A stretch of DNA of 63,575 nt from NCBI GenBank assembly GCA_002700845.1, contig PAFA01000062.1, positions 1 to 63,575 of the forward strand. Reading direction: 5' to 3'. Below the pieces are notes generated by a model. The model had not been told where the DNA came from, searched no databases, and worked only from the letters and a program-made list of their open reading frames with translations. Position numbers and translations under genes: made by a program. Positions 461-28,034 of the stretch are shown here, piece by piece. Source of the stretch: Phycisphaerae bacterium. Its GTDB lineage: Bacteria > Planctomycetota > Phycisphaerae > Phycisphaerales > SM1A02. Every line of letters begins with the position of its first letter. Positions within the stretch are counted from its first letter, which is position 1.

Positions 461-2176
<1,716 letters not shown>

Positions 2177-2555: not shown

Positions 2556-2564
2556 GGAGTTTCC

Positions 2565-4178: not shown

Positions 4179-4190
4179 CTGTCCCCCCAA

Positions 4191-4233
4191 GATCGAAGGT
4201 CGAGTGAGCCTTAGGCTTACTCGGCCTTTGATC
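4191..4233 (+). terminator. 20-bp stem-loop between groEL2 and dnaJ (terminator or mRNA-stabilising hairpin)
   Basis: GATCGAAGGTCGAGTGAGCC-TTA-GGCTTACTCGGCCTTTGATC pairs fully with three G-U pairs on the + strand; only a weak U tail follows. Confidence 0.6.
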
Positions 4234-4252
4234 GTTCTTACAGGAACCAGCC

Positions 4253-5392: not shown

Positions 5393-5394
5393 TC

Positions 5395-5964
5395 ATGAGT
5401 GAAGAAGAATCAGTTCCAGAATCCGAAGCAGGATCTCCAGAGGTCAAGGTTGAGCATGACGCAGCAGAGTCACCCGAAGACGCTGTTGTCCCAACTCAGG
5501 AAGAGTCCTTGCGTGCCGAGCTTGCCGAAGCCATCGAGGCGCGTCAGCGCGCGCTGGCTGACTTTCAGAATTTTCAGCGTCGAAGTCTTGAGAATGAAAA
5601 AAGGGCCACCGCTTCGGGGCGGATGGATGTCATTCGTCCCCTGCTCGGTGTGCTGGATCAAGTTGATCTGGCGCTCTCCCAAGATCCCGAAGCCGTCACG
5701 GTGGAAGCGATGCTTTCCGGCGTGCAGCTGGTTCGTGATGAAATGTGCCGTGTCCTGGATGGTCAGGGTGTGGTGGCGATTGAACCTGAGCCCGGCGCAT
5801 CGTTTGACGCCCATCACCATCAGGCCGTCATGCATGAGGCCAGCGATGATGTTGACGAGGGCTGTGTGATTCGTCGACTTCAAATTGGCTGGGTCCGTGG
5901 TGACATGGTGTTGCGGCCAGCAATGGTGGCCATCTCATCTGGTCCGGCTCCGGTGGGCAACTGA
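5395..5964 (+). CDS. grpE: nucleotide exchange factor GrpE
   Basis: ADFQNFQRR, FDAHHHQAV, LRPAMVAI; ATG 2 nt after the dnaJ stop chosen as start. Confidence 0.93.
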   Translation: MSEEESVPESEAGSPEVKVEHDAAESPEDAVVPTQEESLRAELAEAIEARQRALADFQNFQRRSLENEKRATASGRMDVIRPLLGVLDQVDLALSQDPEAVTVEAMLSGVQLVRDEMCRVLDGQGVVAIEPEPGASFDAHHHQAVMHEASDDVDEGCVIRRLQIGWVRGDMVLRPAMVAISSGPAPVGN

Positions 5965-6272
5965 TGCCAACCTACGAATATGAGTGTCCCGACTGCGGCC
6001 ACACCTTTGAACTTTTTCAGTCCATGACGGCGAAAGTGAAACGCACTTGCCCAGAATGCAAATCACGCAAGCTCAAGCGATTGATTGGTACTGGTGGGGC
6101 AGTCCTCTTCAAGGGTGGAGGGTTTTACGAGACCGACTACCGCAGTGCGGGGTACAAAAAAGACGCGAAAGCAGCCGAAGCCAAGCCAAAAAAGAGCACT
6201 GAAGCCAAGAGTTCACCCAGCACTTCTGCCAAAAAGTCTCCGGGAAGTTCCAAGACTTCCAAGTCGGACTAG
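5964..6272 (+). CDS. FmdB-family zinc-ribbon protein with K/S/A-rich tail
   Basis: MPTYEYECPDC...CPEC, FKGGGFYETDYR; TGATG overlap with grpE. Confidence 0.9.
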   Translation: MPTYEYECPDCGHTFELFQSMTAKVKRTCPECKSRKLKRLIGTGGAVLFKGGGFYETDYRSAGYKKDAKAAEAKPKKSTEAKSSPSTSAKKSPGSSKTSKSD

Positions 6273-6283
6273 GCTCCACATCT

Positions 6284-10637: not shown

Positions 10638-11825
10638 GTGCCAGACTTCGTTTATGTCGCCCGCAACACCTCGGGGCAGAAGCAGGAGGGCGTTGTTTCT
10701 GCTCCCGATCACAGTGCCGCGCTCAGCGAACTTGGCGATCGAGGATTGGTTCCCATTCAGGTGCGAGAACGCACAAGAAGGCGCAGTCGAGGTCGGGTTG
10801 GGACTGCTGCTTTGGCTCGCTTTTATCGACAACTGGCGGACCTGCTTCGAAGCGGTGTCCCCATGCTTCGCGCGCTTCGTCTTTTGGCAAAGCAATCCTC
10901 GAACCCAAGGTTGGCCGCGGCCGCGGAGGACGTTACGCAGAAAGTGACCGAGGGGGCGGGGCTCGCGGAGTCATTTGCTCGCCATGATCAAATTTTCACT
11001 GATGTCCAGTGCGCCATGGTTCGGGCCGGCGAGCAAGGCAATTTTCTTGAGGACGTTTTGGAACGCATCGCGGACAACCTTGAGCATGCTTCGAGACTGC
11101 GTTCGCAGGTCGTTGGGGCGTTGGTGTACCCCATTATTTTGCTTTTGGTCGGTCTGGGTGTGGTGGTGGTTGCCCTAACGGTGCTCGTGCCGAAATTTGA
11201 AGGCTTCCTGGCCAACGGGGATGCATTGCCGGGATCCACCAAGCTTCTGTTGGCCACCAGCGCGCTGTTACGTGCAGATTGGCCACTGATTGTGGTCGTT
11301 TTGATTGGCTTTATCGCCACTGTGTTTGTGTTTCGCCATCACCCGGTCCTTCGTCGTGTCCGAACCGATTGGCCCTTGCGGATCCCGTTGGCCTCTGGTG
11401 TCATTCGGGCTGCGGTCACAGCAAGATTCGCCCGGGCATTTGGCACCCTGCTCGACAACGGGATTGGTTTGCCACAAGCACTTGCGGTCAGCCGGGATGC
11501 GGCTGGGCACCAGCATTTGTCGGTCGCTGTAGGAGAGGCTCTTGATCGGGTCAAAGAGGGTGGTTCATTGGTCCCTCCTTTGGCTGATTCAGGATTCCTT
11601 GACCCGGACACCCTTGAGATCCTCACGGTGGCAGAAGAGTCCAATACCCTGGCCCCAGCACTTGGTCGCCTTGCCGTAGGCCTGGAACGACGGGTTGAGG
11701 ACCGGCTGACATTATTAATGAGATTGGTCGAGCCGATCTTGCTTCTTGCTATGGGTGGCGTTGTGTTCTTTATTTTTCTCTCGTTGGTTCTTCCAATGCT
11801 CAAAATGAACTCCACAGTCACTTGA
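10638..11825 (+). CDS. type II secretion system F-family inner-membrane platform protein (GspF/PilC)
   Basis: FYRQLADLLRSGVP, MVRAGEQGN, ALVYP, LVEP...LVLPM; duplicated T2SSF domain with three TM helices. Confidence 0.92.
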   Translation: MPDFVYVARNTSGQKQEGVVSAPDHSAALSELGDRGLVPIQVRERTRRRSRGRVGTAALARFYRQLADLLRSGVPMLRALRLLAKQSSNPRLAAAAEDVTQKVTEGAGLAESFARHDQIFTDVQCAMVRAGEQGNFLEDVLERIADNLEHASRLRSQVVGALVYPIILLLVGLGVVVVALTVLVPKFEGFLANGDALPGSTKLLLATSALLRADWPLIVVVLIGFIATVFVFRHHPVLRRVRTDWPLRIPLASGVIRAAVTARFARAFGTLLDNGIGLPQALAVSRDAAGHQHLSVAVGEALDRVKEGGSLVPPLADSGFLDPDTLEILTVAEESNTLAPALGRLAVGLERRVEDRLTLLMRLVEPILLLAMGGVVFFIFLSLVLPMLKMNSTVT

Positions 11826-11856: not shown

Positions 11857-12378
11857 ATGCGTCGCGCCTTCAGCTTGATCGAATTGCTTATTGCTATTGC
11901 CATCCTCGTTGCCATTGGTGCGTTGGTCGCCCAGAGTCTCTCTGGCACCAAAGCTGAGGCCGACCTCGACCTAACCAAGGCTGATTTGAGCACCTTTGGT
12001 CGCTCACTCGAGCGTTTTGAGATTCACATGAATCGCGTGCCAAGTGAAGAGGAGGGTGTCGCCGCCCTCTGGTCATCCTCGGCTTTGGAGGATGAAGATG
12101 ATGCCGAGAACTGGCGTGGCCCCTATGTCACCAAGCCAATTCCAGAAGATCGATGGGGTACTGAGTGGCGTTACGCCGCGCCCAGTGAACTTGTCGAAGG
12201 CATGTTGTATGACATTGTCTCGGCCGGTCCGGATAGAGAATTTGACACCGAAGATGACCTGCACAATCACATGGCGATTGTGAATGCCGACGGAGAACTT
12301 CGTGAGGGGATGGAAGACTTCGGCGGCAGCGATGACTTTGGTCTGGGCGGTGACTTCGGATCCGGCGACGGCGAATGA
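11857..12378 (+). CDS. gspG: major pseudopilin GspG-like
   Basis: Prepilin leader MRRA|FSLIELL; P-S-E-EG, WRGPY, DRWG..WRY and the Ca-binding loop SAGPD..DTEDD. Confidence 0.88.
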   Translation: MRRAFSLIELLIAIAILVAIGALVAQSLSGTKAEADLDLTKADLSTFGRSLERFEIHMNRVPSEEEGVAALWSSSALEDEDDAENWRGPYVTKPIPEDRWGTEWRYAAPSELVEGMLYDIVSAGPDREFDTEDDLHNHMAIVNADGELREGMEDFGGSDDFGLGGDFGSGDGE

Positions 12379-12818
12379 TTTCGCGGGCCTTTGGCCGCGC
12401 CTTCACGCTCTTTGAAGTGTTGCTGGCGCTGGTTCTTTTGGTGGCTCTTTCGTCCTTGGTCGTTGGGGTCCTGCTTCGCTCTGATCGTGACCACGACCTC
12501 CTTCAGGTCCAATTGAATGCGTTGGTGGACATATCTTGCGCTCGCGCAGAGCAAAGGCGAGAGACACTTTCGGTGTGGGGACAGTCCAGTTCGGTGTTCG
12601 TCAAGACGCGCTCCGAGCAGGATGACGTCTCGCCAGTGATTTACACGAGGAAACTACCTGGCCTATTGACGTGGGATGTTCCCGTTGAATTGGCCATCAT
12701 TGCCCCGGACGGTACGGTCTTGTCGCGTGAATCTGGACAGTTGGTTGACGGTCACTTGGTTCAACTTGGTGCCGTGAATGGTCAGGTTCAAATTCTTCTG
12801 CCGGAGCAGCGGCCGTGA
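12375..12818 (+). CDS. minor pseudopilin (GspH-like)
   Basis: RA|FTLFEVLLAL N-methylation leader; ATGA overlap with gspG. Confidence 0.7.
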   Translation: MISRAFGRAFTLFEVLLALVLLVALSSLVVGVLLRSDRDHDLLQVQLNALVDISCARAEQRRETLSVWGQSSSVFVKTRSEQDDVSPVIYTRKLPGLLTWDVPVELAIIAPDGTVLSRESGQLVDGHLVQLGAVNGQVQILLPEQRP

Positions 12819-13255
12819 GACTCGGCGTGCTGCTGCTTGAAGTGTTGCTCGCGTTGGCGCTGTTTCTTGCCGTGGTTGGTCTTGGTTTCTCCGCTATTGA
12901 ATCGGGACAAAGTTCAGTTCGGCAGGGTCGCCGCGAAGCTCAAGCCGTTGATTTGGCTCTTTCCCGTTTGGCTGAACTTGAAGCTGGCATCCTGCCTTGG
13001 CCAGAACTTCGCGACGATCCTGACCAGCCGATCGGTACCGCCGCTGATTTTGACACCCCTTTTCGCCCGGACGGTTTTTTGGTTCAGGTTGAAAGGCAGC
13101 GATCCGTACCTGGTTTGGTTCGCGTGTCAATAAAGGTTCAAGAGGCGAATGACCCCGATGGGCCATTTCTTGCACGTATTGAGCGCTTGATTGAGGTTCG
13201 TCCTGATGACCCGGAAGCATTTGAATCCGACGACCTTTTTGGGGATGCTCCGTGA
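12815..13255 (+). CDS. minor pseudopilin (GspI-like)
   Basis: MRLG|VLLLEVLLAL leader; A..LA.SRL.EL and GL.RV.I.V patterns; position in the cluster. Confidence 0.7.
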   Translation: MRLGVLLLEVLLALALFLAVVGLGFSAIESGQSSVRQGRREAQAVDLALSRLAELEAGILPWPELRDDPDQPIGTAADFDTPFRPDGFLVQVERQRSVPGLVRVSIKVQEANDPDGPFLARIERLIEVRPDDPEAFESDDLFGDAP

Positions 13256-13896
13256 ACCGGGGCCTCACCTTGCTGGAAATGTTGATCGCGCTTGCGCTGA
13301 TTTTAGCGCTTACCGTTGCGGTAGGAAGGTTTGCAGAGTCGTATCGAAGTGGTCGAGACTTTGCTATCGAGGAAGCTTCTCGAGACCGAGAGATCGACGC
13401 CATGTTTGGGCGTATGGCCAAAGCTTTTGCGTCGGCTGATGCGAGTGTTGGGGGGGTGGTTGGTCAGCATGATGGAATCGTCATCGCGCATCGTGGAAGT
13501 GTCCTTCCCGCCGCAGGATCGAGTGGTTCTGCCCTCGATTTACTATCGGATTTCAGTCGGTACGAGTTTCGTATTGAAAGTGATATCCAAGAAACTTTTT
13601 TTTCTGGTTCTGCGCAAACCGATGTTTCGTGGGTCAGTTCGTTGTCGGTTGTAGAACTTCGGTATCACGACGGTACGAATTGGCTGGACTCATGGAAGAG
13701 CAACACCGGACTTCCCTTGGCAATCGAGTGCAAAATTTGGATTGATTTTGACCCTGATCCAGAAACCTTTGAAACAGCAGAGGGTGCTGTCGAGGCAGAC
13801 ACACCTCCTATTGATAAGGATGATTGGCCGCGGCCGGATCGACATCGTATTTTTGCGCCGGTTGATCCCGTCATTGCCGCGGGGGGCGCATCATGA
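13252..13896 (+). CDS. minor pseudopilin (GspJ-like)
   Basis: MNRG|LTLLEML leader; C-terminal LRYHDG.NW.DSW...LPLAIE motif typical of GspJ. Confidence 0.78.
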   Translation: MNRGLTLLEMLIALALILALTVAVGRFAESYRSGRDFAIEEASRDREIDAMFGRMAKAFASADASVGGVVGQHDGIVIAHRGSVLPAAGSSGSALDLLSDFSRYEFRIESDIQETFFSGSAQTDVSWVSSLSVVELRYHDGTNWLDSWKSNTGLPLAIECKIWIDFDPDPETFETAEGAVEADTPPIDKDDWPRPDRHRIFAPVDPVIAAGGAS

Positions 13897-15200
13897 AGCC
13901 TGGCGTGGTCTTGCCTGTGGTTTTACTGATAGGCATCAGTGTTTTGTTGTCGGCAGTTGGCCTGTTTGCGTTGTCGGTCCCAGCGGCTGAGCGGGGTTGG
14001 CAACGAAATCAAATTGCTCAGCGTGAGGCTGATGTTCGTTCGGCACTGGAGTTACTGCGGGTTCATATTGGCCGGCAACGCGAATCGGTTTTGCTTGGGT
14101 CGGCACCTGATGTTGAGCCGTCTTGGATTCTTCGTGAGGCTCCAAACGGCTTGGTGGTCTTGCGACCAATCGATGCAGATCCCACAGGAGTATGTTCCCC
14201 GCTTCGTGCCGAGTCGGGTCGTCTTGATATTCGTGTGACTCCTGAGTCGTGGTGGGCGTCTGTGCCAGAATTCAATGCCATCGCTCCTAATCTCGCAAAG
14301 GTAAGGGGCTCAACTTCGGTTCGATCCTTACTTGGGGCCGGTGTCACCCCTGAGGATTACGCGACCGTCGAGCCTCTTCTCACCGTGCACGCGGAGGGTC
14401 CTGAACTTCAACTGGATGGTCGGCAACGAATCAAGTTGGGTGCGATCTGGAACGATGACATTGCGGCACGTGTGACAGATCGGTTTGGCCAAGGCGCTGC
14501 GGATGCTTTGGCAGACCTGTACGCCAGTGATCGGGTCCCACAGGACTTGAGCGGTATGGTTCGTGTTCTTCAATTTTTCAAAGTCCCGGTTGAGGATTGG
14601 AGTGAGATCCTGGATGGGTTTTCCTACCAAGGGGATGTTGCACGTGGTCGTATTGATTTGAACACAGCCCCGGAAGTGGTCTTGTCAGCTGTGCCAGGAA
14701 TTGGATTGGCCGCCGGTCAGATTGTTGCGACTCGAGCCAGTCTTTCTGCTCAAGAACGATCCACCATCGTGTGGCCGGTCCTTCGGGACATTATTTCCTC
14801 TGAAGATTTTGATGAATGCGCTTCGTACCTCACGACCCGTTCGTTCCGATGGCGTGTTGATTTTGAGGTAGGCCTCGTTGAAGAGGATGGAGAAGATTTT
14901 GTTTCCCCGCCCGATCGTGTGAGCTGCGTCATCGATTTGGGAACCCCCCGTCCGAGTTTGGCGTCATGGCGTCCAATGAATGTGGATCAGACGGTCCAAT
15001 TCTTGGTGGGTGAGCGCCGGACAGAAGATGGGGAAGATGAAGAAGATGACGAACGTGACGAACGTCCGTTGCCCGCCTCGCGCCAAACATCACCTGATGT
15101 GCCTTCTCGATCCCGGTCAACCGAAGAACCAGAATTTCAGCTTGATGTGCCCGCGGGAGCGACTCGAGCACCTTCGCGGAGTCGGCCTCCGAATGCGTAG
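13893..15200 (+). CDS. minor pseudopilin GspK-like
   Basis: MKPG|VVLPVV leader lacking Glu5 (a GspK hallmark); ESGRLDI, GRIDLNTAPEVVLSAVPGIG, LTTRS..W.V. Confidence 0.8.
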   Translation: MKPGVVLPVVLLIGISVLLSAVGLFALSVPAAERGWQRNQIAQREADVRSALELLRVHIGRQRESVLLGSAPDVEPSWILREAPNGLVVLRPIDADPTGVCSPLRAESGRLDIRVTPESWWASVPEFNAIAPNLAKVRGSTSVRSLLGAGVTPEDYATVEPLLTVHAEGPELQLDGRQRIKLGAIWNDDIAARVTDRFGQGAADALADLYASDRVPQDLSGMVRVLQFFKVPVEDWSEILDGFSYQGDVARGRIDLNTAPEVVLSAVPGIGLAAGQIVATRASLSAQERSTIVWPVLRDIISSEDFDECASYLTTRSFRWRVDFEVGLVEEDGEDFVSPPDRVSCVIDLGTPRPSLASWRPMNVDQTVQFLVGERRTEDGEDEEDDERDERPLPASRQTSPDVPSRSRSTEEPEFQLDVPAGATRAPSRSRPPNA

Positions 15201-16656
15201 GATGTCTTTCGTGCGATTAAGACGTGAGACATCACTGGTGGCCTTAGAGCTCCGCCCAGAAGGGGGGCGAGGCCTCCATATCAAGATGGAGGGCCGTGGT
15301 GATGACGCTCACTTTGAGTTGGGTGATACGTTTGAGTTGCCCCCATTTGCGTTCGGTGATCCGGAGGCGGTAGGGATGCTGGCTGAGGCCATCGCGGACC
15401 AACCGCCGGGGCCGCTGTTGCTGGCCTTACCCCGGGAGGAATCGGTCCTTCGTCGATTGGATTTGCCCACCACAGAGCCTGATGAATTGCTCACCGTTGC
15501 TCGGTTCCGTTTGCTGCAAGAGGCGCAATTGGATGAATCTGGTGCGGCTGTTGATTACTTGCCGATCCAATCTACAGAAGCAACAACTGCGGCCATCGTC
15601 GTTGGGGCAAGTGGGCCCGTCATGCAAATGGGTTTGGAACTTGCAGCCGCATGCGGCCGGCGAATCGCTGGGGTTTCGCTGCGGGTTTTGGGTTTGCCAG
15701 ATCTCTTGGACGCTTCGGAGGGTTCACCCTCTCTGGCAATAGATCTGACTCGTGGCCCATCGTTGGCTGTTGTTGTAGATGGTGTGGTTCATCGGGTTGG
15801 GGCATCGAGTGACGCCATTGAGGATGTGGAGCGCGAGACCATTCGACTGGTCTCTGCTTGGCGAATGACGGAGGCGCAGCCGGTTGCTCAAATTGTTGTT
15901 TCGGGGCCACATGAGGTTGCTGAACATCTGATCGGCCGATTGCGCTCGGCGTTGGGCTTGTCCGTTCAACATGTCGCTGCACCCCTAGACACAGAACTTT
16001 CGTTGGGAGTTGAGCACTCGGACGGGACACCCTGGGGTTTGGTTGGTCTTGGGCGTGCGCATTTGCTCTCTCACGATCGAATCGACCTGAAGCATCCACG
16101 TGCTCCCGAGGATCGAGCGGCCCCTCGGCGGCGAAAAGCAATGTTGTTCTCGGGAGTGTTGTTGGTCCTGTTCGCTTGGATATGGACGTCGGGAACCGCT
16201 GAATTGAAGGAGATTCAAATCCGCACCAACAAGATTCGGATGCAGTTGTCCCAGCAAACCAAGGCTGAAGCCGAAGCAACACGACAGATGCTCCGTCAAA
16301 AGCATGCCACTGAATGGCTTTCAGTTTCTCCAGATTATGTCTCCGAGTTGCAGTCTATTTCCGAGGTTGTCCCCGATGACGGGCGTGCGGTCTTGGGATC
16401 ATGGCGAGCATCATTGGTATTTGATGGTGTGGTTTATGACTCCAAAGCGCCAACGAGTGAGAGATGGAACCGTTCGTATCGACTTCGATTCGTAATGACA
16501 GGTGAGGCTCAGGACCGAGCGGTCGCTGACAGCATTCGGGCCGCGCTGGTGGATGGAGATCAGTTCCGAATTGAAACCAGTGGGGCGGAAGCGGCAAAGG
16601 GAAAGAGGTTGCCACGAGCATTTACGTATGAACTTGGTCGGGAGAGTGCCCGATGA
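15193..16656 (+). CDS. GspL/PilM-PilN-like assembly-platform protein
   Basis: N-terminal actin-like region (LALPREESVLRRLDLP), IDL..P before one TM helix, coiled coil, then a ferredoxin-like periplasmic end (MTGEAQD). Start placed at the ATG overlapping the gspK stop. Confidence 0.7.
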   Translation: MRRMSFVRLRRETSLVALELRPEGGRGLHIKMEGRGDDAHFELGDTFELPPFAFGDPEAVGMLAEAIADQPPGPLLLALPREESVLRRLDLPTTEPDELLTVARFRLLQEAQLDESGAAVDYLPIQSTEATTAAIVVGASGPVMQMGLELAAACGRRIAGVSLRVLGLPDLLDASEGSPSLAIDLTRGPSLAVVVDGVVHRVGASSDAIEDVERETIRLVSAWRMTEAQPVAQIVVSGPHEVAEHLIGRLRSALGLSVQHVAAPLDTELSLGVEHSDGTPWGLVGLGRAHLLSHDRIDLKHPRAPEDRAAPRRRKAMLFSGVLLVLFAWIWTSGTAELKEIQIRTNKIRMQLSQQTKAEAEATRQMLRQKHATEWLSVSPDYVSELQSISEVVPDDGRAVLGSWRASLVFDGVVYDSKAPTSERWNRSYRLRFVMTGEAQDRAVADSIRAALVDGDQFRIETSGAEAAKGKRLPRAFTYELGRESAR

Positions 16657-17591: not shown

Positions 17592-17658
17592 ACCCAAACG
17601 GTCCGATAGACTCTAAACACCGGCGGAGCCGGTAGACGCAGCCACACGGAGGTGGAAT

Positions 17659-20600
17659 TTGTCAACATCACCGCGCACATTCTTGGCCCCTTTGCTTCTT
17701 GGCGGATTGGTGGTCGCCAGTCCGTTGTTGGCCGCCGCCCCCAGGGCAAATATGGTGACGCTTGAGGACGGCCCGGCTCTGCCAGAATCCTCCGAGCCGG
17801 TCATCACTTTTTCATTCAAAGAAGCGACCTTCGAACAGGTGGTGGATTTCTTTGGCCGTGCCGCCGGTCTGCCCGTGGTTTGGGAGGCTTCGCCTCCGCC
17901 CGGAACACTTCGGTATCAAAGCGATCGGACGTATGGCGTTGACGATGGACTGCAAGTTCTGAACACCATTCTTCAGGCCAAGGGTGTGATGTTGCGGCGT
18001 CGCGAAGACATGCTGTACTTGCAGCCCCTCGCAGAGATGGCCAAGCGTGATGTGCCTACGTTTGTTGGCTCGTTGCCCGACAGTGTTACGGACGATGAAG
18101 TCGTCACGCTGGTTCTGCCTTTGCGTATCGCGTCGGCCAGTGCATTGGTGGAGCAACTTCGTGGTTTGGTTGCAGGTTACGGGTCGGTCTCAGCGCTCCC
18201 ACAACAGAATGCATTGGTGGTGGTGGAGACGGCAGCTCAAGTCCGTCGCCTGGCGGGAATGGTGGCGTCTTTCGATGCCCAAGACACTGATGGTGTCGTG
18301 CGCATCATCAAACTTCAGCACGTTGGTGCGAATGAAATCATGGGGCCACTGCGTTCTTTACTCGCTGTTCGCGTGGAGAGGTACGTTGTTGACGCTAAGG
18401 GCAAGCAAGTCAAAGTTGAAGACGAGCAAATTCCAGGGATCACATTTAGTCCTGATCCACGAACCAACAGTTTGATAATCAAGGGGGGGGAGGCCCAAAT
18501 TGCAAAGCTTGAAGAAGCGGTTCGCTTGCTGGACGTCCCAACTGACCGCAGTTCAGGCCGCCGTACGTTTTCTCTCGAAAACAGCACGCCTCAGGACCTG
18601 ATTCGTGCGTTGGGTCCCTTTGTGAATCAGTTGCCAAGGGACAAGCGGCCACGTTTATTGCCGATTGCGGTAACGAACAGACTTTTTGCTACTGGTAACG
18701 ACGCGGTACTTGAAGAACTGGCGGGCCTGGTTGCCGAGTATGACGGGGGCGGCGTCAAGGTTCCCCAGGAAGACGGAGCTCCTGCGATCGAGGTGATCTC
18801 TCTCGATGCGGTTCGTGCTTCAGACATCCTGCCGCAAATTCGAGGTGTGCTTTCCATCCGTCAGCAGCAAGTGCTTCGTATGGTTGCGGGCCCAGAAGAT
18901 CGCACCTTGATCCTGGCTGGGCCAAGAGCAGATGTCGAGGCCGTCAAAGAGGTGCTCCCCGTCTTCGACAAGTTGCGAGCTGGCGAGCGAGATATCGTCA
19001 TTCTTCCCCTGCGGGGTCCCGATGCCCAGTCGAGCGTGGAGCGTGCCCTGGATTTGGCTCGTGACCGACTGGCCGGCCGAGCTATCTCTGCGGCAGATCA
19101 GACGATCGAAGCCATATTCGATTCAACACAGGGCGCTGTACGCATCGAAGCAACACGTGTGGGCGTTGATGCATTTCGGGCGGCTCTGGATGAACTTGAT
19201 CAAATTCCGCTGGTGGCGCCCAGCGTCCGTCAAGTTCCTGTTCAGTACGGTGAGGCCTCTGAGGTTGCTTCTGACCTTGCCGCCCTCCTGCAAATGCTTT
19301 CGGAAGTTCACGGAAGACGCCCAGCGGAAGTCTCGGCCGTATCTGCGATCAATTCGTTGCTCTTGACTGGTTCGACGGAAGCTGTTGCTGAAGCCGAATC
19401 ATTGCTCTTGAAGGTTGATCTTCCAAGGCCCGGCGAGCAACTGGTGCGAACCGTTTCGGTAAAAGGCGTCGCTGATCCGGAAGAGTTGCTTGAGGAGGCG
19501 CGTGGGTTCTTTGATATTTTGGCGGTTGGCGCCGGTATGGCTGACGCAAAGGTTGAGGCCTCCTACAAGGACGAGGCTGAAGTGATTGTGCTGTCTGGTT
19601 CTGCGAAGGCTGTACAGCGCATGGAAGAAGCGCTCCAGCAAGCCCGATCAGCCATGCCTGCTGAAGATGTCCGTCGTGTCATCGCTGTTCAGCGTGGGGA
19701 TGCTGAGGAGGTGGCGGACCGTCTTCGGAACGCGCTGGATGAATATCCAACCGCGCCTGGTGAAACCATCAATCCCCTTGATATCTCCGTACTTTCGGTG
19801 ACAAACGAGTTGGTTCTGCGAGGACCCGAGGAATGGGTTGAAACCGGCGTGGCATTGTTGTCAAGAGTGGACCGCTTGAACGATGGGCCCTTGCCTCCTC
19901 TGCGTTTGCTTGGGGTGCGAAACACCGACGCGTCCACAGTTGCTGATCTCTTGCGTCGTCGATTTGATGCTCGGGGTGCAGACGAGCGGCGTTCGGACCC
20001 CGTCGACATTGATGTCGCCGATGGTGCCAATGTTCTGATTGTCACGGCATCAGAGGAGCGTCAAGTCGAAATCAAAGGCTTGGTCGATGAACTCAATGCC
20101 TTTGGTGGCGCTGACCGTGAGGGCCGGGTCATTCGGATCTTCCCGCTGAAAACAGCTCAGGCCGAAGAACTCGCCCGCACGCTCGATGAGATGTTCCCTG
20201 AGAAGCCTGTGCCTCTTGATCGGCGTGGCCGGCCCATGACCGAACTCCGGGAGCCCCGAGACGTTGTGGTTCGGGCGAACCGCCAGACCAATTCGCTGAT
20301 TGTTGATGCATTGGCCGACCGGATGAGCTCGTTTGAAGAGCTGGTGCGGCAACTTGACCGCGAGCAAGTGCGGACCGAAACCTCAATTCGAACTTATCGA
20401 CTGAATGACGCTGATCCGGAACGTGTGGCCGCATCCCTACGAGAACTGTCTGCACAAGGGGTGTTGAATTCAGCGGGAGGTGATCGGCGTGTCCCCGTAA
20501 ATGTGTCGGTTGAGGAGGCGACAAAGTCACTCATTGTCTCTGGGCCAGAAGAAGCCTTCGCAAGAATTGAATCTTTGATCGAAAACTTGGATGTTGCGCC

Positions 20601-23600
20601 CCCTCGGGCAGCAACAGAACTTCGATTTTTCCAGCTGAAGCATGCGCAGGCGGATCGAATGGCTCAAATGTTCCGGCCAATTCTGCAAGCGCGTTTGCAG
20701 GAACTGATGCCAGAGCTAAAAGATCAGCGGGGGGCTCTGGAAGTTACAGCAGCGCCGGAGACCAACACCTTGATTGTTTCTGCTCCGGTGGAATTGCAAG
20801 GGGTTGCTCAAGAGTTGGTTGACCGTCTTGATCGCCTGGCTCACGCCGGCCGCCGAACCTTCCGTACCCAGCGACTGGACCCATCGATTGCCGATGCGGA
20901 AGAGATTGCTCGTAACTTACGCCGTCTCCTGGAACGCGAGGGTGGGCCCAGGGTGCGTGTGGTCACACTAGAAGAATTACTTTCTGAGCAAGAGGATTCG
21001 CCGGACAAAAAAAATCCCAAATCAATCGGTGAAGGGGGGATCAGCGCACGGTCACTTCCCGGCATGATTGCGGCCTCGGCTCTTGGACTTTCCTCCAATC
21101 CTGACGACGGCGATCTTGCCCAGGATGATGTGGACTTGATCGTTGCGGTTGACGCTGCAACCAATTCCTTGGTGTATTTGGGTTCCCCAGAGTCGATCAA
21201 GTCTGCGACAGAGCTGGTCAACGAGCTTGCGGCGGAACTCCCTCCACCTCCGGTTGAAATTTTGAGCATTGATCTTCCGGATTCAATAAACCCGAACGCG
21301 TTGGTCAATTTGCTTCAAGACGCACTGCTCCAGTTGGATGTTGCGGGAGCGACCAGTAGGGCGCAAAGGATTGGGATCCTTTCAAATGTTGAGAACAATG
21401 CAATCGTGGTCACAGGGACTGAATCCGATTTACAGTTGGTGACACGGCTGTTGTCGGCGATTGCGAAGCCGGAGAGTGGTTCACCGCGTGAGGCTCGTGT
21501 ATTTCGGCTTGAAAACACCGATGCCGACAACGCGGTTGCGGCGATTTATACCCTGGTCGGGAAAGAAATCAGGGGCTTCTTTCGCTCACGTTCTCGAGAC
21601 GAGCAACCCAAATCGGTGACGCTTAGTTATGCCGGTTTTGATCCGGTTTCAATTCGAAGTGATCAAGTTGACGCCACGGCTGATTGGTCCTCCGGGACCG
21701 TAATGGTGACTGCTCCAGTTAAAGCTTTGCCCATTCTGTCCGCATTCATTGCCGACCTCGATCAGCAGGAAGATGGCACCGCTACGGCAGTAAAGTCGTT
21801 CCGCTTGGAATTTGCCCAGGCTGAGGGTATTCAAAAAACCATTCTTCCGATTGTGAGTAGCCAGTTTGCGTCGATTGATCGATACGGTGGTCAGCGCAAT
21901 GCTGCATTGGAGATTCGTGCGGATGCGAGAACCAACACTTTGGTTGTTGCTGGAAGCGAAGAGCAGATTCAGGCGGTCTCGGGTCTGGTGGACATTTTGG
22001 ACGTCTCAGACGAGGCCGAGGGTCTCCGTCAGCGCAAAATAGAATTGGTTCGAGTTCTCGAAGCAGAACCCACTACTGTCGCAAGAGCGCTGCGAGAGCA
22101 ATTCCCCCGTGGACGAGGCAATGAGCTCACGGTGACGGTTGACCCTCGAACGCGGAGCATCGCGATTGGGGGGACAGAGGGGGTCCTGAGTCAGGTGCGT
22201 GAACTGGTCGCGATGCTTGACCAGCCCGAGGCGGCGGAAGAAACAATTCTCCAAACTTTCCGTTTGGATGAGGGTCGTGCCGAAGAGGCGGTCCGTTTGC
22301 TGACCGCATCATTGGGACTCGATGCGCAAGGTCGAACCACTGGAACGGCGGTCCTTGCCGAGGGTTCCGATCAAGCTGTTCTGGTCCGGGCTCGTATCGT
22401 CGCTGATCGCCGTACAAATGCGGTCGTGGTGAATGCCACGCAAGAATCCATGCCAATTATCGAGCGTCTGCTGGAGGATATTTCCGCAGCTCCACCCAAG
22501 CCGATGCGCGAGTTCCATGTTGTGCAACTCGAACACGCGATGGCCGATGACGTTGTCTACACGTTGCAGCGAATTTCAGATCGCGGAACTCGAGATGAGC
22601 CAGGCCCGAGTTTCGACTTTGAACGCGATGCAAACCGGGTCATTGTTCGTGCAACCACTGATCAGTGGCAAAATATCCAAGAAGTCATTGGCAGTCTCGA
22701 TCGTCCAGTCGACAACCCGTTGCTCACAGAAATTGTTTCGTTGCAGTGGTCAGAAGCAAAGCAGGTGCGTGAGGCTCTGGGGATCTTTTACGGTACCTAT
22801 GCCTATGCGGCCACGACTCCTGCTCAACGGTCGGTTTCGATTGTCGCTGACCCAAGCACCGGAAGTCTGGTGATCTCTGCACCAGAGGGTGAATGGGACA
22901 GTATTCGCTCTCTGATTTCAAAACTAGACCGTGAAGAGAACGACGCTTCGCTTCAACTCCGTTCGTTTACGCTGGATCATGCTGATGCCCGCGCGGTCGC
23001 CCGCGCTATCAACGAAGCTTTTGCTGGGGAGCTGACTGGCCGAAACCAACGCGGGGGGCAACCCTCTCGGAACGGGCGTGATGATCGAGAAGCGCCGCCG
23101 GCTGTTTTGGTTGAAGCAAATGAATGGGTTCGGGCCAGTGCTGAAACAGAAACCAACAGTGTGGTCGTTGCGGCCAACCGAAACCGAATGGAGAAAATTG
23201 CTGAGATTGTGATTTCTCTAGACACCGCTGGTGAAGAGGCTCAGGGGGGTGTGGTTGAAGTTATTCGTATTGCGTCAGCAAGTTCTGCGGTGATCGCCGA
23301 TGAACTTCGTCGCACGTTTAACCCTATTGCGAAGCGTCGAAACCAGCCCCTTTCTATCCAAGCCTCAGTTGCGTCCAATGCCCTCATTGTTTCTGCCCCT
23401 CCCCCTCTTATGGAGCGAATCGAACAAACGGTGGCGGCGTTGGAGGCTTCAGCGCCGATCGATGGTGAGTCTGTGTTGATCATTGACCTGGATCACGTCT
23501 CGCCTCAGGATGCTCAACGCTTCTTGAATAGTGTTGGTGCGGGAGGTGGCAAGGATGCAGCCGGTCGAAATTTCCGTGAGCCGCTTCGGATATCACCGGT

Positions 23601-26600
23601 CCCAGGAAGAAACGCAATTGTGGTCGCGCTGAATCCAGCGGATCGCGAACGTGTTACGTCACTGCTCAAGGCCCTGGACCGCGGCAATCCTGAGTCCTCC
23701 GCAGAGGTCCGGTTGGTTCAATTGCAGCGCAATCGTGCCAATGACATTGTGAACATTGTCCGCCGGGTACTGGATCCAGGCGACAGTGCGGTTGGCACTT
23801 CACTCGCCAAGGGTATGGCCGCTCAGCTTCAGGCACTTCGTGTTCACCAAGACGGGGGCGCAGACGAAGACTTGGCTCTTGATCTGACCGTTCCAATTAA
23901 GGTTCAGCCCGATGCCGCAAGCAACACGGTGGTTGTGACTTCTTCGCGACCCAATGTGCTGGCCATCGAAGCTTTTATTGAGATGCTTGATCGTGTTCCA
24001 GTGACGCCGGCGGTTTCGGTCAACGTCATGGTGCTCGATCACATGGATGCCCAGGCGTTTAGCAATCTGTTGCAGGATCTTTCCGCTCAAGCTGGTCGCT
24101 TCGCAAGAACCCCAGTTGCTGGCGTTCCAGGACTCCCGGCGGACCCCGCTGGTCGTGCACTTTTGACCGGTGTTGCAGTATCAGTGGATGAACGCACCAA
24201 TGCTGTGGTGGTCGCTGGTTCGGAAGAAGCCGTTGCCTTGGCTGAGGTCATTCGGATCAAGATGGACGTGCCATCATCTGATGGGTGGCTGGAACCGAGG
24301 TTGTTCCCCGTCCAGTACGCAAACGTCGAAGATTTGGCGGCGCGACTGAATGACCTCCTGTCGAATGCAGGGCAGGAGCCAGATGCCGCGCGGCGATTCG
24401 GTCGGCTTAGAGTCGTTCCCCCACTTGGCGATTCGGGTATGTACGACTCTCGCCTGAGTGCCCCTTTGGATGAAGTTTATGTAAGTGCAGAGACACGGTT
24501 GGGTGCGATTCTTGTTGTGGCTGAGCCGGATCATTTGCAAGTCGCAGCCGAGTTGATCGGAATGATGGACATACCCTCGTTCCGCAAAGGGGCTGGCTTC
24601 GCCACGATTGACTTGCTCAATGCCTCGGCTGAAATGGTTGCCGGCCGATTGCTGCGCGTGGTTGACGCGCAGCGAGAGATTGGTGCTCTTGGTGAAGATG
24701 ATGCCCTCCTGGTTGAGCCGGACATCGCCAGCAATGCCATCATTCTCTCTGGTTCCGAACCAGCGCTTGAACTGGCCCGTTCGGTGCTACCGAGTCTGGA
24801 TACGGAAAGCTCCGATGTGGTGGTCGAGACGATTGGTTTGGCTTTTGTCGATCCAGTTCGCGTTGCCGATGTGGCAGAGTCTCTGCTTCAAGCCAGGTCA
24901 CAAATGCGGGAGCGCATGGGCGCCGGTGCACGAGCCATTACTGAAACTGCGGTTGTACTTCCAGACCTGCGTACAAACAGCCTGCTGGTTACCGCCACGC
25001 AGACCGGTCTTGAAATCGTGAAAGACCTGGTCAATGAACTCGATGTCGAACGCGATCTCAATGAGACCATCTTTGAAGTAATTCCGGTTGGTCGAGCGGG
25101 ACTTTCTCGCACTGCTGATGCGGTCAGCCGTTTGCTGGAGCGCCGGACACTTGGATTGTCCGCGGATGAGCGTGCTCGTCGTCAGCCGCTGGTTATTCCC
25201 GACGCGAGGACAGGAGCACTTCTCGTCGCGGCAGCGCCCGAGGACATCGATGTCGTGCAGACCATTACCGATCAGTTGCTTGAGATCCCCGACGACCCAG
25301 CTCTGGGTCTTCATGTTGTTCCGGTGCCGGCAAATCTTGATGTGGAAGATGTCGCCCGCCGCATTGAGCAACTGATGCGAGAACGAGAGCGCTCACTTGG
25401 TGACGCTGTCGGTCCGGATGACCGTGTGGTTGTGGAGCCAGAACGATCCGCGAATGCATTGCTTGTTGCGGCAAATCAGGCCAACCTAGAAGAAGTTGAA
25501 TACCTGGTCGAGCTTCTTTCCTCTACCGGTGATCAGTTGTTGAAAGACCGTGAGATTGCCCTGATCGCGGTTGAGGGTGATACCGCGGAAAACATGTCCG
25601 ATTTGCTCGATGAGCTTTATGTTGACGATGCCAATCGCCGCCGTCCCAATTCCGTCCGTGTGGTGCCTGATTCTCGATCCAATGGGGTCCTGGTGAACGG
25701 GTCTCCGGGGGATGTTCGGGCTATACGGGATTTGATTCAGCGTCTTGATACCCAAGACCCTGCCCGACTCGTTGAGGTGCGAACGGTTGCTCTGGCCTCG
25801 GCAAATTCGATTGAAACCGTTGCCCTGATCGAGAGTGTTCTCCGCGGCGGCGGGCGATCACGCCGCGGTGCGGCCACTGTTCTCCGCTACCTGGGTGAAG
25901 ACGGTGATCCTGTTGAAGTCTCATTGGCCCTGCGTGATGTCATTGCATTAACGCCTGATGTTCGAACCAACTCGGTGATTGTTTCTGCGCCCCCCGACTC
26001 GCTCTCCTTGCTGGTTCGGATGATTTCAGATCTTGACACCTCAAGCACCGGGGCAAAGAGTGTGCGTGTGTTCGAACTGGTCAACGCGGATGCAGCGGCC
26101 ATGCGTGAGATTTTGATTGACCTCTTCAATCTTCGTCAATCTGGAAACCTGTATGTCCTGAAACCTCGTGAGGGTGGCGGAGTTCCAGACAGCAGTGGGG
26201 CCGAAGCGCTTTCTGATTTGGGAGGTGGTGAAGGATTCTTGGGCGATGATTTGACCGCGGTGCCAGATGAGCGTCAACAACTTTCCATAACGGTGGACCG
26301 CCGGACCAACTCACTCTTGGTTTCGGGCACGCCAAAGTATTTGGACCTGGTCAAAAATGTTGTTGAGCAGTTGGACTCTCTCGAAGCCAACGAGAGAGAG
26401 ACTTTTACGGTCCAGCTCCGGAATGCAAGAGCTTCGGATGTAGCCAGCATCGTTTCTGAATTCGTTGAGGAAGAGCAGCGAAAATTAGTGGGCACTCTTT
26501 CGGATGAACAGCTTGGTTCAGCAACCCGACTTCTGGAGCGAGAAATCACCATCAAGGGTGATGAGAAAACCAACACGGTTTTGGTGTCGGCCTCTCCCCG

Positions 26601-27510
26601 GCACTCTGATCGGGTTCGGCAGCTTCTCGAGCAGCTCGATGTCGACCCGCCGCAGGTGTTGATTGGAGTCATGCTGGCTGAAGTCACTTTGGACAACTCC
26701 GCCACTGACGGTATCGAGGCCAGCGTTGCGGCCGGTGGTGGTACCGCCCGCGGCACGCTTGGGTTTGGACTTGGAACCGCAGCACTCACCGGAGTTGCAG
26801 CGCCGAGCATGGAGGTTTCGGGCGCCGATTTTGGACTGTTCCTTCGGGCTCTTCGCGCTCAGGGTCGGCTTCAGGTGCTGTCAAATCCGGCGGTGATGGC
26901 GGCCAATAATGAGCCTGCACGCTTGCAGGTCGGTGATCTCATCCGTGTTGCCGATCAACAGTCGGTAAGTGCCAACGGTGTCAACACGACGACACGTGAA
27001 GAGCAGTTGGGCATCACCCTTGAGGTAACGCCAACGATTACGCCAGACGGTTTTGTACGCATGGATGTCAAGCCTTCGATCCGAGATCTGTCCGCACGAT
27101 CTGTTCAGATCTCCGAAGATTTAATCTCGCCGGTGATTACGACTCGCGAGGCTGAGACCACTGTCACCGTTAAGGATGGACAAACTATTGTTTTGGGTGG
27201 CTTGATCTCTGATCGCTACGAAAAACGAACTGAAAAAGTTCCTTTGTTGGGTGACCTTCCAGGAGTGGGTTATTTTTTCCGTGGCGAGCGTGAAACAGAT
27301 GCTCGTACCGAGCTCTTGATTGTGCTGACGCCACATGTGATTGAATCTCCAAAGCGAAGTTCGCGTGTCTCCGAGATTACTGACCGTGAGGCTTCGCGGC
27401 TTACGCTTCCGGAAGAAGTTCTTGACATGATTCGTGAGGGGCGCATCGATCCAACGAGTGGTTTGTTTGATGCCAACGGTGACCGGGTTGACTTTTCGGA
27501 GGAAGAATGA
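17659..27510 (+). CDS. giant secretin (GspD-like) with about 34 tandem secretin N-domain repeats
   Basis: GGAGG RBS with TTG start, signal peptide, N0 (ITFSFKEATF), repeated DxRTNxL-V motifs. C-terminal secretin domain starts near 26641 (PQVLIGVMLAEV, VLSNP, GITLEVTPTI, VKDGQTIVLGGLI, KVPLLGDLP, ELLIVLTPHVI). Confidence 0.93.
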   Translation: MSTSPRTFLAPLLLGGLVVASPLLAAAPRANMVTLEDGPALPESSEPVITFSFKEATFEQVVDFFGRAAGLPVVWEASPPPGTLRYQSDRTYGVDDGLQVLNTILQAKGVMLRRREDMLYLQPLAEMAKRDVPTFVGSLPDSVTDDEVVTLVLPLRIASASALVEQLRGLVAGYGSVSALPQQNALVVVETAAQVRRLAGMVASFDAQDTDGVVRIIKLQHVGANEIMGPLRSLLAVRVERYVVDAKGKQVKVEDEQIPGITFSPDPRTNSLIIKGGEAQIAKLEEAVRLLDVPTDRSSGRRTFSLENSTPQDLIRALGPFVNQLPRDKRPRLLPIAVTNRLFATGNDAVLEELAGLVAEYDGGGVKVPQEDGAPAIEVISLDAVRASDILPQIRGVLSIRQQQVLRMVAGPEDRTLILAGPRADVEAVKEVLPVFDKLRAGERDIVILPLRGPDAQSSVERALDLARDRLAGRAISAADQTIEAIFDSTQGAVRIEATRVGVDAFRAALDELDQIPLVAPSVRQVPVQYGEASEVASDLAALLQMLSEVHGRRPAEVSAVSAINSLLLTGSTEAVAEAESLLLKVDLPRPGEQLVRTVSVKGVADPEELLEEARGFFDILAVGAGMADAKVEASYKDEAEVIVLSGSAKAVQRMEEALQQARSAMPAEDVRRVIAVQRGDAEEVADRLRNALDEYPTAPGETINPLDISVLSVTNELVLRGPEEWVETGVALLSRVDRLNDGPLPPLRLLGVRNTDASTVADLLRRRFDARGADERRSDPVDIDVADGANVLIVTASEERQVEIKGLVDELNAFGGADREGRVIRIFPLKTAQAEELARTLDEMFPEKPVPLDRRGRPMTELREPRDVVVRANRQTNSLIVDALADRMSSFEELVRQLDREQVRTETSIRTYRLNDADPERVAASLRELSAQGVLNSAGGDRRVPVNVSVEEATKSLIVSGPEEAFARIESLIENLDVAPPRAATELRFFQLKHAQADRMAQMFRPILQARLQELMPELKDQRGALEVTAAPETNTLIVSAPVELQGVAQELVDRLDRLAHAGRRTFRTQRLDPSIADAEEIARNLRRLLEREGGPRVRVVTLEELLSEQEDSPDKKNPKSIGEGGISARSLPGMIAASALGLSSNPDDGDLAQDDVDLIVAVDAATNSLVYLGSPESIKSATELVNELAAELPPPPVEILSIDLPDSINPNALVNLLQDALLQLDVAGATSRAQRIGILSNVENNAIVVTGTESDLQLVTRLLSAIAKPESGSPREARVFRLENTDADNAVAAIYTLVGKEIRGFFRSRSRDEQPKSVTLSYAGFDPVSIRSDQVDATADWSSGTVMVTAPVKALPILSAFIADLDQQEDGTATAVKSFRLEFAQAEGIQKTILPIVSSQFASIDRYGGQRNAALEIRADARTNTLVVAGSEEQIQAVSGLVDILDVSDEAEGLRQRKIELVRVLEAEPTTVARALREQFPRGRGNELTVTVDPRTRSIAIGGTEGVLSQVRELVAMLDQPEAAEETILQTFRLDEGRAEEAVRLLTASLGLDAQGRTTGTAVLAEGSDQAVLVRARIVADRRTNAVVVNATQESMPIIERLLEDISAAPPKPMREFHVVQLEHAMADDVVYTLQRISDRGTRDEPGPSFDFERDANRVIVRATTDQWQNIQEVIGSLDRPVDNPLLTEIVSLQWSEAKQVREALGIFYGTYAYAATTPAQRSVSIVADPSTGSLVISAPEGEWDSIRSLISKLDREENDASLQLRSFTLDHADARAVARAINEAFAGELTGRNQRGGQPSRNGRDDREAPPAVLVEANEWVRASAETETNSVVVAANRNRMEKIAEIVISLDTAGEEAQGGVVEVIRIASASSAVIADELRRTFNPIAKRRNQPLSIQASVASNALIVSAPPPLMERIEQTVAALEASAPIDGESVLIIDLDHVSPQDAQRFLNSVGAGGGKDAAGRNFREPLRISPVPGRNAIVVALNPADRERVTSLLKALDRGNPESSAEVRLVQLQRNRANDIVNIVRRVLDPGDSAVGTSLAKGMAAQLQALRVHQDGGADEDLALDLTVPIKVQPDAASNTVVVTSSRPNVLAIEAFIEMLDRVPVTPAVSVNVMVLDHMDAQAFSNLLQDLSAQAGRFARTPVAGVPGLPADPAGRALLTGVAVSVDERTNAVVVAGSEEAVALAEVIRIKMDVPSSDGWLEPRLFPVQYANVEDLAARLNDLLSNAGQEPDAARRFGRLRVVPPLGDSGMYDSRLSAPLDEVYVSAETRLGAILVVAEPDHLQVAAELIGMMDIPSFRKGAGFATIDLLNASAEMVAGRLLRVVDAQREIGALGEDDALLVEPDIASNAIILSGSEPALELARSVLPSLDTESSDVVVETIGLAFVDPVRVADVAESLLQARSQMRERMGAGARAITETAVVLPDLRTNSLLVTATQTGLEIVKDLVNELDVERDLNETIFEVIPVGRAGLSRTADAVSRLLERRTLGLSADERARRQPLVIPDARTGALLVAAAPEDIDVVQTITDQLLEIPDDPALGLHVVPVPANLDVEDVARRIEQLMRERERSLGDAVGPDDRVVVEPERSANALLVAANQANLEEVEYLVELLSSTGDQLLKDREIALIAVEGDTAENMSDLLDELYVDDANRRRPNSVRVVPDSRSNGVLVNGSPGDVRAIRDLIQRLDTQDPARLVEVRTVALASANSIETVALIESVLRGGGRSRRGAATVLRYLGEDGDPVEVSLALRDVIALTPDVRTNSVIVSAPPDSLSLLVRMISDLDTSSTGAKSVRVFELVNADAAAMREILIDLFNLRQSGNLYVLKPREGGGVPDSSGAEALSDLGGGEGFLGDDLTAVPDERQQLSITVDRRTNSLLVSGTPKYLDLVKNVVEQLDSLEANERETFTVQLRNARASDVASIVSEFVEEEQRKLVGTLSDEQLGSATRLLEREITIKGDEKTNTVLVSASPRHSDRVRQLLEQLDVDPPQVLIGVMLAEVTLDNSATDGIEASVAAGGGTARGTLGFGLGTAALTGVAAPSMEVSGADFGLFLRALRAQGRLQVLSNPAVMAANNEPARLQVGDLIRVADQQSVSANGVNTTTREEQLGITLEVTPTITPDGFVRMDVKPSIRDLSARSVQISEDLISPVITTREAETTVTVKDGQTIVLGGLISDRYEKRTEKVPLLGDLPGVGYFFRGERETDARTELLIVLTPHVIESPKRSSRVSEITDREASRLTLPEEVLDMIREGRIDPTSGLFDANGDRVDFSEEE

Positions 27511-28034
27511 AGCCCGCCGCGTTCGGCATCATGATCTTTGGGCTGCTGGGTTGTCAGACCACAGAGGTCACCACCAACGATGGCCGCGCCCTTCCTCCCG
27601 TGCCGACACCAATTCCGCAGCCTCCAGAAAATATCCAAATTGATGCCATGACCTTGCTTGTCGGCCAACGCCCCATTGATGTTGATGGCGATGGTTATCC
27701 CGATCGGATTGAAGCGGCCGTTGCTCTATTTTCTGAAGCCTTCGCCGCCTCTTCGCTCCGGGTCGACGGAACAATCACGTTTGAGTTGGTCCCACGTGGA
27801 GCCGATCAAGTTCCCATTGCCCAGTGGTCAGTCAAAACGGATGATCTTGCGCTTCAATCCGTGGATGCGTTGTATGGACCGGCATGGCAAATTGCCCTTG
27901 ATCTCCGCGAGGTTGCGGATCCTGTCCGACCTTTGGAATGGGTAAATCTTCGCGCGTCGTTTCAGCCAGTTCAAGGTCGATCGGTGCAGACCAGTGAGGA
28001 GCCTCGTTTGATTCAAATCGGGCATGACTTGTAA
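27507..28034 (+). CDS. lipoprotein, candidate secretin pilotin/accessory protein
   Basis: Lipobox LLGC after a hydrophobic leader, Pro-rich tether, DVDGDGYPD motif; ATGA overlap with the secretin stop. Confidence 0.7.
   Translation: MKPAAFGIMIFGLLGCQTTEVTTNDGRALPPVPTPIPQPPENIQIDAMTLLVGQRPIDVDGDGYPDRIEAAVALFSEAFAASSLRVDGTITFELVPRGADQVPIAQWSVKTDDLALQSVDALYGPAWQIALDLREVADPVRPLEWVNLRASFQPVQGRSVQTSEEPRLIQIGHDL

Follow-up and report, generated by a model that had tools for sequence, protein, structure and literature searches.

A giant GspD-like secretin with 34 repeated N-type domains and a signal-like internal loop in marine Phycisphaerales

The secretins of type II secretion systems (T2SS), represented by the solved GspD, PulD, XcpQ and ExeD structures (PDB 5zdh, 6hcg, 5wq7, 6i1x and 5wln), comprise a signal peptide, an N0 domain, further domains of the N fold, an outer-membrane barrel and an S-like tail, and are encoded in gsp operons together with pseudopilins and a partner bearing an HR domain. 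PulD, with domains N0–N3, is 20 nm long and attaches through its N0 ring to the HR domain of PulC (PMC6882859), and a secretin barrel is about 8.5 nm tall (PMC10828601). The longest secretins found described in the literature searched both measure about 35 nm, namely PilQ of Thermus thermophilus, which has domains N0–N5 and works in a periplasm of about 70 nm (PMC4463427), and DR_0774 of Deinococcus radiodurans (PDB 8co1), which has N0–N3 and a flange domain (PMC10828601). Here we describe a gene coding for a secretin of 3283 aa, located in a 63,575-nt contig (GenBank PAFA01000062.1, assembly GCA_002700845.1; the whole contig is hereafter the window) of a marine bacterium of the order Phycisphaerales.

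The giant protein has the parts of GspD listed above, the S-like tail being represented by two predicted C-terminal helices, and lies in a gsp operon with pseudopilins and a predicted HR-bearing partner. However, it differs from canonical GspD in having 34 N domains rather than three, an internal signal-like loop, and relatives encoded by two genes, while its system differs from the canonical T2SS in that GspM is fused to the HR domain of GspC, GspE is encoded outside of the operon, and the candidate pilotin belongs to no known family. Thermus PilQ resembles the giant, whose own rings are predicted, in owing its length in a wide periplasm to additional N rings; unlike the giant, it belongs to a type IV pilus system, has six N domains instead of 35, and operates in an envelope that is wide throughout, whereas the carriers of the giant keep ordinary secretins. 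DR_0774 is likewise an elongated secretin reaching toward the inner membrane, and it is the second-best fold match to the giant, but it lacks a repeat array. Neither the giants nor their internal signal were found described in the literature searched, which was without most subscription journals and supplements; a preprint on giant genes (10.1101/2023.11.21.568195) concerns other proteins beside type II systems. The giant is a genuine type II secretin of a new form, as had been proposed in a preliminary description of the window made from the letters alone.

The gene begins with a TTG codon located 6 nt downstream of a GGAGG sequence (17648-17652). A signal peptide (predicted by eye) and an N0-like domain are present, in agreement with the preliminary description, and its roughly 34 repeats were confirmed; an iterated self-profile set the number at 34, arranged back to back in residues 149-2998 with gaps of 2–9 aa. 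In this profile 33 repeats score E<1e-3 and repeat 5 scores E=0.002, with no matches in any of 20 shuffles. The earlier assignment of the repeats to secretin N domains also stands: PF03958 (Secretin_N) matches 27 stretches of the protein (E 4e-240), the best of which is repeat 34 (residues 2915-2999), directly preceding the barrel in an N3-type position. The C-domain begins at about residue 2999, close to residue 2995 proposed before, and the whole profile of PF00263 (Secretin) covers residues 3064-3229 (E 1.4e-48). Residues 46-140 have no match in the Pfam scan; judged from profile matches, they are an N0-like domain, since a profile of this region of the giants matches the N-terminal region of seven out of nine ordinary secretins with E<=1e-3. 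No AMIN domain was matched by Pfam. The repeats are as strongly diverged as first reported, with a mean pairwise identity of 23% and a maximum of 40%. No tandem array was found within the gene at the DNA level, where only short diverged motif copies occur, and tandem or direct repeats were therefore rejected as a source of artefact; no super-repeat periodicity was detected either, the mean similarity by lag being nearly flat (39–47).

Two regions of the protein were modelled with AlphaFold2, the last 1,200 residues in one run and the region of repeats 12–14 in another. All of the modelled repeats (the second half of 24, 25–34, and 12–14) adopt a beta-alpha-beta-beta-alpha fold. The first model (mean pLDDT 73) contains whole repeats, barrel strands and two tail helices, and the best fold match is GspD 5zdh; the closest solved sequences are the type II secretins 6i1x, 5wln and 6hcg. 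A four-copy complex prediction for repeats 9–11 scored 0.01 and was not used as evidence. Among protein families, the best match is to TIGR02517 (GspD), with 832.6 bits (cut-off 351.35), a value inflated by the repeats. On sequence grounds the protein is thus a GspD-like variant rather than a canonical GspD, because 34 repeats instead of three N domains follow N0. By homology, its barrel would form a putative gated outer-membrane pore of 12–15 subunits.

The expansion had been considered old rather than an assembly artefact, and this view was borne out. Contigs from all four DNA runs, which belong to different studies, cover each of the 30 bins of the gene without an indel or a joint. The check proposed earlier, that long reads should span the frame, was answered in part, as the evidence consists of contigs and no single contig of the other runs spans the gene. 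Four of five genomes of the same genus contain open frames of 3307–3333 aa (the fifth, a 490-contig assembly, gives 751 aa at the best match), five single-contig genomes hold giant frames of 3776–4910 aa, and synonymous changes predominate between the giant gene and its same-genus orthologue. Short pieces of the gene are present in contigs of all four marine RNA runs, where DNA carry-over is possible. An artefact or a decaying expansion might be suspected in a metagenome bin that is 78% complete, the more so as the gene is nowhere spanned by one contig from another run, but the joint-free tiling, the open frames in relatives and the prevalence of synonymous changes make this explanation exceedingly improbable.

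A first family search yielded 116 giant proteins, the one in the window included, among 2,578 candidates, and a second search starting from a distant member yielded 936 proteins of 2,197–6,992 aa among 1,808 candidates. Members with both N0 and the barrel contain 31–56 repeats, and the range over loci is 24–63; the longest array seen, with 63 repeats, is a 6,169-aa open frame (L049:2693-21199; locus, genome, contig and protein numbers are ours). In a FastTree phylogeny of the C-terminal part, the giants form three groups separate from ordinary secretins: that of Phycisphaerales, including the window, a group mainly of Verrucomicrobiota, and another planctomycete group. The region of repeat 13 was found in 56 of 151 genomes of Phycisphaerales. 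Sampling of the phylum gave matches in 53 of 401 Planctomycetota genomes, 17 of which, 16 of them from Phycisphaerales, have frames longer than 2,400 aa. Repeats 1–4, 9–13 and 18–34 match the same-numbered repeat in relatives, in order, as expected if each repeat has fixed neighbours. Longer relatives have block 9–11 doubled and extra blocks in addition, so that the protein in the window is a shortened member. Every named giant record is a metagenome bin, and no cultured carrier occurs among them (names were scanned in 6 of 64 parts, and most proteins are nameless).

Several observations concern the distribution of the family. In family f1, 14 of 39 sampled genomes have no match to the junction region, and all 14 are 2.0–2.8 Mb in size; the loss may be tied to genome reduction, and the genus of the window, with genomes of about 2 Mb, nevertheless keeps a shortened giant. 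Six giant-bearing contigs labelled Anaerolineales, Akkermansia muciniphila, Klebsiella or Proteobacteria (L026, L028, L029, L056, L062 and L065) group with giants of the planctomycete or Limisphaerales type and are probably mislabelled or mis-binned. A 2,868-aa frame in the bin of the window (G000 C3:515-9121), the start of which resembles by eye a retroelement protease region, perhaps lies on a contaminant contig.

Repeat 13, the longest of the array, is divided by a loop that the preliminary description did not note and that suggests two chains rather than one. The first half of this repeat is recognisable in 85 of the 116 family proteins, and the loop could be delimited in 73. A Kyte-Doolittle 11-mer value above 1.5 is reached in 62 of these 73 loops and in 15 of 577 other long loops. 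In 27 dereplicated loops arginine and lysine make up 11% of residues before the hydrophobic segment and 4% after it, and aspartate and glutamate 13% and 25%, respectively, a charge distribution resembling that of a signal peptide. Comparison of the giant with its same-genus orthologue revealed 95% and 91% identity in the halves of repeat 13 and 83–85% in the other repeats, while parts of the loop are 29–55% identical, so that the halves are the most conserved portion of the array and the loop the least. In the model of repeats 12–14 (pLDDT 85 overall) the two halves form one domain and leave the loop disordered.

In three genomes of one genus (L013, L014 and L165; L124 and L122 are the same records as L013 and L014) the gene is split exactly at this loop. 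Gene A ends after the extra helix of the first half, and gene B opens with a signal peptide followed by the second half of the domain; in L013 gene B has an ATGA overlap and a GAGGAG sequence. The products of gene B in the split forms are P0081, P0084 and P0086. The split forms are one clade nested deep among the fused forms (quick FastTree phylogeny, rooted on the other giant groups), and an approximately unbiased (AU) test, performed on 34 of the 143 rows and chosen after the first tree had been seen, rejected the 23 fused rows as a clade (p 4e-80). The nesting indicates that the segment is older than the split, which turned it into the signal of gene B. In Bradyrhizobium, a single gene for FbcH gives two products parted at an internal signal, a precedent not confirmed by the literature search; in that case a membrane protein and a second protein are encoded together, whereas both products of the giant gene would be periplasmic and share one domain. 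Cleavage of the fused polypeptide at repeat 13 is a prediction to which we give slightly less than an even chance.

Internal initiation of translation was rejected as a general source of the second chain, because methionine shows no excess ahead of the segment (it occurs in 4 of 27 loops and makes up 1.1%, the background being 1.7%) and a start codon with a 4-base Shine-Dalgarno match occurs in only 4 of 50 rows, same-genome repeats and split rows included. Three other interrupted loci were not accepted as true splits. The apparent three-gene form in G050 (L121) was rejected since each break is a frameshift within a domain and neither comes with a signal peptide, L043 has an in-frame stop and no signal, and L026 consists of overlapping frames beside N bases. 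The stop of L043 (14380-14560, mid-repeat) and the frameshifts of L121 and of G002:C1:65536-67230 are likely sequence errors breaking otherwise whole giants. In the other planctomycete group a signal-like loop lies 12–15 repeats before the barrel, or the gene is split there with a clean signal peptide, and some members have a second signal-like loop after repeat 8–11 (examples of the group are P0109-P0112, L052, L054, L046, L075, L055, L064, L066 and L073).

A number of facts weigh against an internal signal. With a median length of 43 aa, against 67 aa, the control loops are the shorter ones, and this difference works in favour of the contrast in hydrophobicity; moreover, the loop is less hydrophobic than N-terminal signals (median 1.88 against 2.27). 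The hydrophobicity mark is missed by 11 of the 73 loops, and that of the window is among the weaker ones (1.55–1.69). An AxA-type motif is not enriched in the loop (17 of 27, compared with 14.4 in shuffles, p 0.16). A profile made from the loop has hardly any preference for N-termini (9 of 113 against 0–4 in shuffles), which is too weak to decide, and on genomes two of its nine matches fall at N-termini, 1.2 being expected. The split arose once and represents one event, not many. In the clade made up mostly of Verrucomicrobiota, a hydrophobic loop of any kind occurs in only 4 of 113 giants and looks signal-like by eye in none, so an internal signal is not required to make a giant. Finally, an internal signal behind a segment that has already been exported needs an unusual topology.

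An uncut loop could instead anchor repeat 13 in the inner membrane, with the part downstream of the junction (segment B, about 70 nm) spanning the periplasm and the upstream part (segment A) folding back as a collar or cage around the platform, N0 also being located at the inner membrane. This arrangement would explain why hydrophobicity is kept with no clear AxA signal, and the short linker of the GspM/GspC fusion, which would hold N0 near the inner membrane, suits it as well. In 52 fused loci (five rows were dropped, three being split, one cut at the 5' end and one frameshifted), 7–24 repeats precede the junction (SD 5.2) and 18–28 follow it (SD 2.3); the lower variability of segment B is in line with an anchor, and a variable segment A on a steadier segment B is compatible both with an added length of fixed tube's extension and with a collar that folds back. 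However, where the gene is split this segment serves as an N-terminal signal peptide and as such would be cleaved off, and one giant clade lacks the loop. We thus regard the anchor as rather unlikely.

The operon has the gene order gspF-G-H-I-J-K-L-M/C-D followed by a lipoprotein gene, an order that recurs in related loci (Table 1). The products of gspF and gspG are clear by Pfam, those of H, I, J, K, M and C give weak matches under the cut-off, and L is assigned by position. The gspL-like gene has no informative match in Pfam or NCBIfam, and we take it to be gspL from its place and the familiar architecture of such operons. The M/C fusion gene was found beside the giant secretin in 49 of the 94 loci with a giant frame, many of which are cut short. 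Searches of Pfam, NCBIfam and the ESM Atlas gave no family for the downstream lipoprotein. There is no ATPase gene in the operon. The gspE genes adjoining four related giant operons all have their best match in the window's genome at G000 C22:1-1581 (54% identity for the two whole ones), and this GspE is therefore the likely partner ATPase.

In another reading the machine is a pilus or uptake system, in which a long fibre would grow through the tube and bring in polymers. Pilus-assisted uptake had been proposed along with export in the preliminary description; TIGR02515 (PilQ) does score above its cut-off (339.8 against 284.35), and some planctomycetes bind dextran on fibres emerging from crateriform structures (PMC5394234). 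Nevertheless, the GspD score is far above that of PilQ, the pseudopilins are of the G–K type, the operon is of the gsp kind rather than one linked to pilMNOP, no PilT was seen beside giant operons, and the work on fibres concerned other planctomycete classes. The PilT-like genes of the window's genome lie in other clusters, and three PilT-labelled matches at related loci are the same ORFs as the GspE matches. Uptake thus becomes very unlikely, and the giant very probably works as a secretin of the T2SS type.

A long tube is the most likely shape, and we lean slightly towards its formation by stacking of all 34 neck domains. Subtracting a barrel of about 8.5 nm from the 20 nm of PulD with N0–N3 leaves about 2.9 nm per ring, and by this arithmetic 35 rings would give a tube of about 110 nm, of which segment B with the barrel would account for about 70 nm and segment A for about 40 nm. 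Ring formation by the middle repeats is a prediction, and the pTM of 0.38 of the 1,200-residue model means that the domains are resolved and their mutual arrangement is not; both points count against the tube. If only the last few repeats formed rings, the others would be flexible beads on 15 strings, tethering the pore to a far-off inner membrane or gathering periplasmic cargo. Such flexibility is known for N0–N2 in most secretin structures (PMC6882859) and would agree with the low pTM and with the free change of repeat number by blocks, but repeats 18–34 are conserved by position across the order and the linkers between repeats are just 2–9 residues long, which leaves flexible beads quite unlikely.

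The model that we favour, to which we give about an even chance, is a stacked tube in which two chains are clasped together at repeat 13 and along which a pseudopilus would move folded cargo. The N-terminal signal would start Sec export of segment A (N0 and 12.5 repeats), and the internal signal would start export of segment B (21.5 repeats and the barrel), with signal peptidase I cutting after the signal. The barrel of segment B would oligomerise in the outer membrane, perhaps aided by the downstream lipoprotein, and segment A would dock on segment B by completing repeat 13. The HR domain of the M/C fusion, which has a short linker, would keep N0 close to the inner membrane, and the GspG pseudopilus, powered by the GspE of contig C22, would push folded cargo along the tube. 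The machine may be sited where the membranes are far apart, or may hold them apart, while ordinary secretins would serve the narrow parts of the envelope. A bolder version, which we consider doubtful, is that this is the longest known trans-envelope secretion channel, of 100–180 nm, made from a secretin polyprotein cut by signal peptidase, and that the barrel-less chain of variable length clips on by completing a split domain, as a modular ruler that would either set or span a local widening of the periplasm.

The length of the giant was initially linked to the enlarged periplasm of planctomycetes, a link that the survey of secretin lengths weakens. Giant frames were found in only the 17 of 401 sampled Planctomycetota genomes mentioned above, and all five single-contig genomes with a giant also have 3–9 further, ordinary secretin matches; the ordinary secretins of giant-bearing genomes are 650–1,300 aa long. 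Besides the giant, the window's genome encodes three secretins (open frames of 849, 850 and at least 1,008 aa), one of which, on contig C41, has its own full gsp operon. Since machines of normal length cross the same envelope, a wide gap could exist only locally, which is a further difficulty for the favoured model, and the length of the giant is not simply an answer to a uniformly wide periplasm. An enlarged periplasm has been shown in Planctopirus and Gemmata, where crateriform complexes occur at close membrane contacts (PMC5394234); no such data for the Phycisphaerales carriers of giants were found in the literature searched. Another cluster of the bin, gspC-D-E-F-G at G000 C33:1-14010, has a secretin that groups away from the planctomycete ones, and same-genus genomes have three secretin matches against four in the bin, so contig C33 may be a stray.

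Table 1. Features of the giant secretin gene and its operon in the window
Feature	Position	Strand	Basis or remarks
gspF platform protein	10638..11825	+	PF00482; TIGR02120 below cut-off
gspG-like major pseudopilin	11857..12378	+	PF08334, PF07963; TIGR01710 78 bits against 88.85
Minor pseudopilins, gspH-, gspI- and gspJ-like	12375-12818, 12815-13255, 13252-13896	+	Weak NCBIfam matches, gene order
gspK-like gene	13893..15200	+	Weak HHH_3 match, position, kept in related loci
gspL-like gene, true start probably near 15193	14980..16656	+	Position; kept in 49/94 loci
Fused GspM-like and GspC HR-like protein, proline-rich linker of ~40 residues	16653..17591	+	Weak NF040576, NF041515 and PF11356 matches
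Giant secretin gene (gspD-like), 3283 aa	17659..27510	+	ORF, PF00263/PF03958, TIGR02517
N-terminal Sec signal peptide, ~residues 1-25	17659..17733	+	Predicted by eye
N0-like domain, residues 46-140	17794..18078	+	Profile match to ordinary secretins
Repeats 1-12, length-variable block	18103..20844	+	7-24 repeats precede the repeat-13 equivalent in relatives
Repeat 13, junction domain: first half with extra strand and helix, disordered loop, second half	20857..21243	+	
Hydrophobic signal-peptide-like segment, residues 1133-1144	21055..21090	+	Basic residues before, acidic after
Repeats 14-34, more constant block	21256..26652	+	18-28 repeats in relatives
Secretin C-domain (outer-membrane barrel)	26653..27345	+	Pfam, sequence and fold matches
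Two C-terminal helices, S-domain-like, predicted	27358..27438	+	AlphaFold2
Lipoprotein with LLGC lipobox, candidate pilotin	27507..28034	+	Kept in 46/94 loci

The surroundings of the operon contain several other genes. An acetyl-CoA synthetase gene directly precedes gspF, and further upstream (461-8623) are two groEL copies, dnaJ, grpE, a zinc-ribbon gene and a gene for RNase R. Two genes past the operon (29166-31853) is encoded a zincin with a signal peptide and domains DUF5117 and DUF4953, a possible secreted protease, which is 95% identical in a same-genus genome and was not found beside other giants. In five relatives the giant operon or its gspE has a gene similar to 6-pyruvoyl-tetrahydropterin synthase (PF01242) on its immediate upstream side (L170:8997-9863, L169:8811-9941, L175:3384-4745, also L036 and L048); in the window's genome such a gene is located at G000 C101:3492-4253, unlinked to the giant operon.

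Secretins in the literature consulted have three to six N domains and lengths of 20–35 nm, compared with 24–63 domains in the giant family, which even marine bacteria with genomes of about 2 Mb retain, although each 15-mer takes roughly 49,000 residues. The junction in repeat 13 can be tested cheaply and without a cultured strain. If cleavage there is true, the giant would be a soluble polyprotein of the periplasm divided at an internal Sec signal, an unusual case in bacterial export. The existence of the family implies an envelope geometry or a cargo that is not covered by models of type II secretion.

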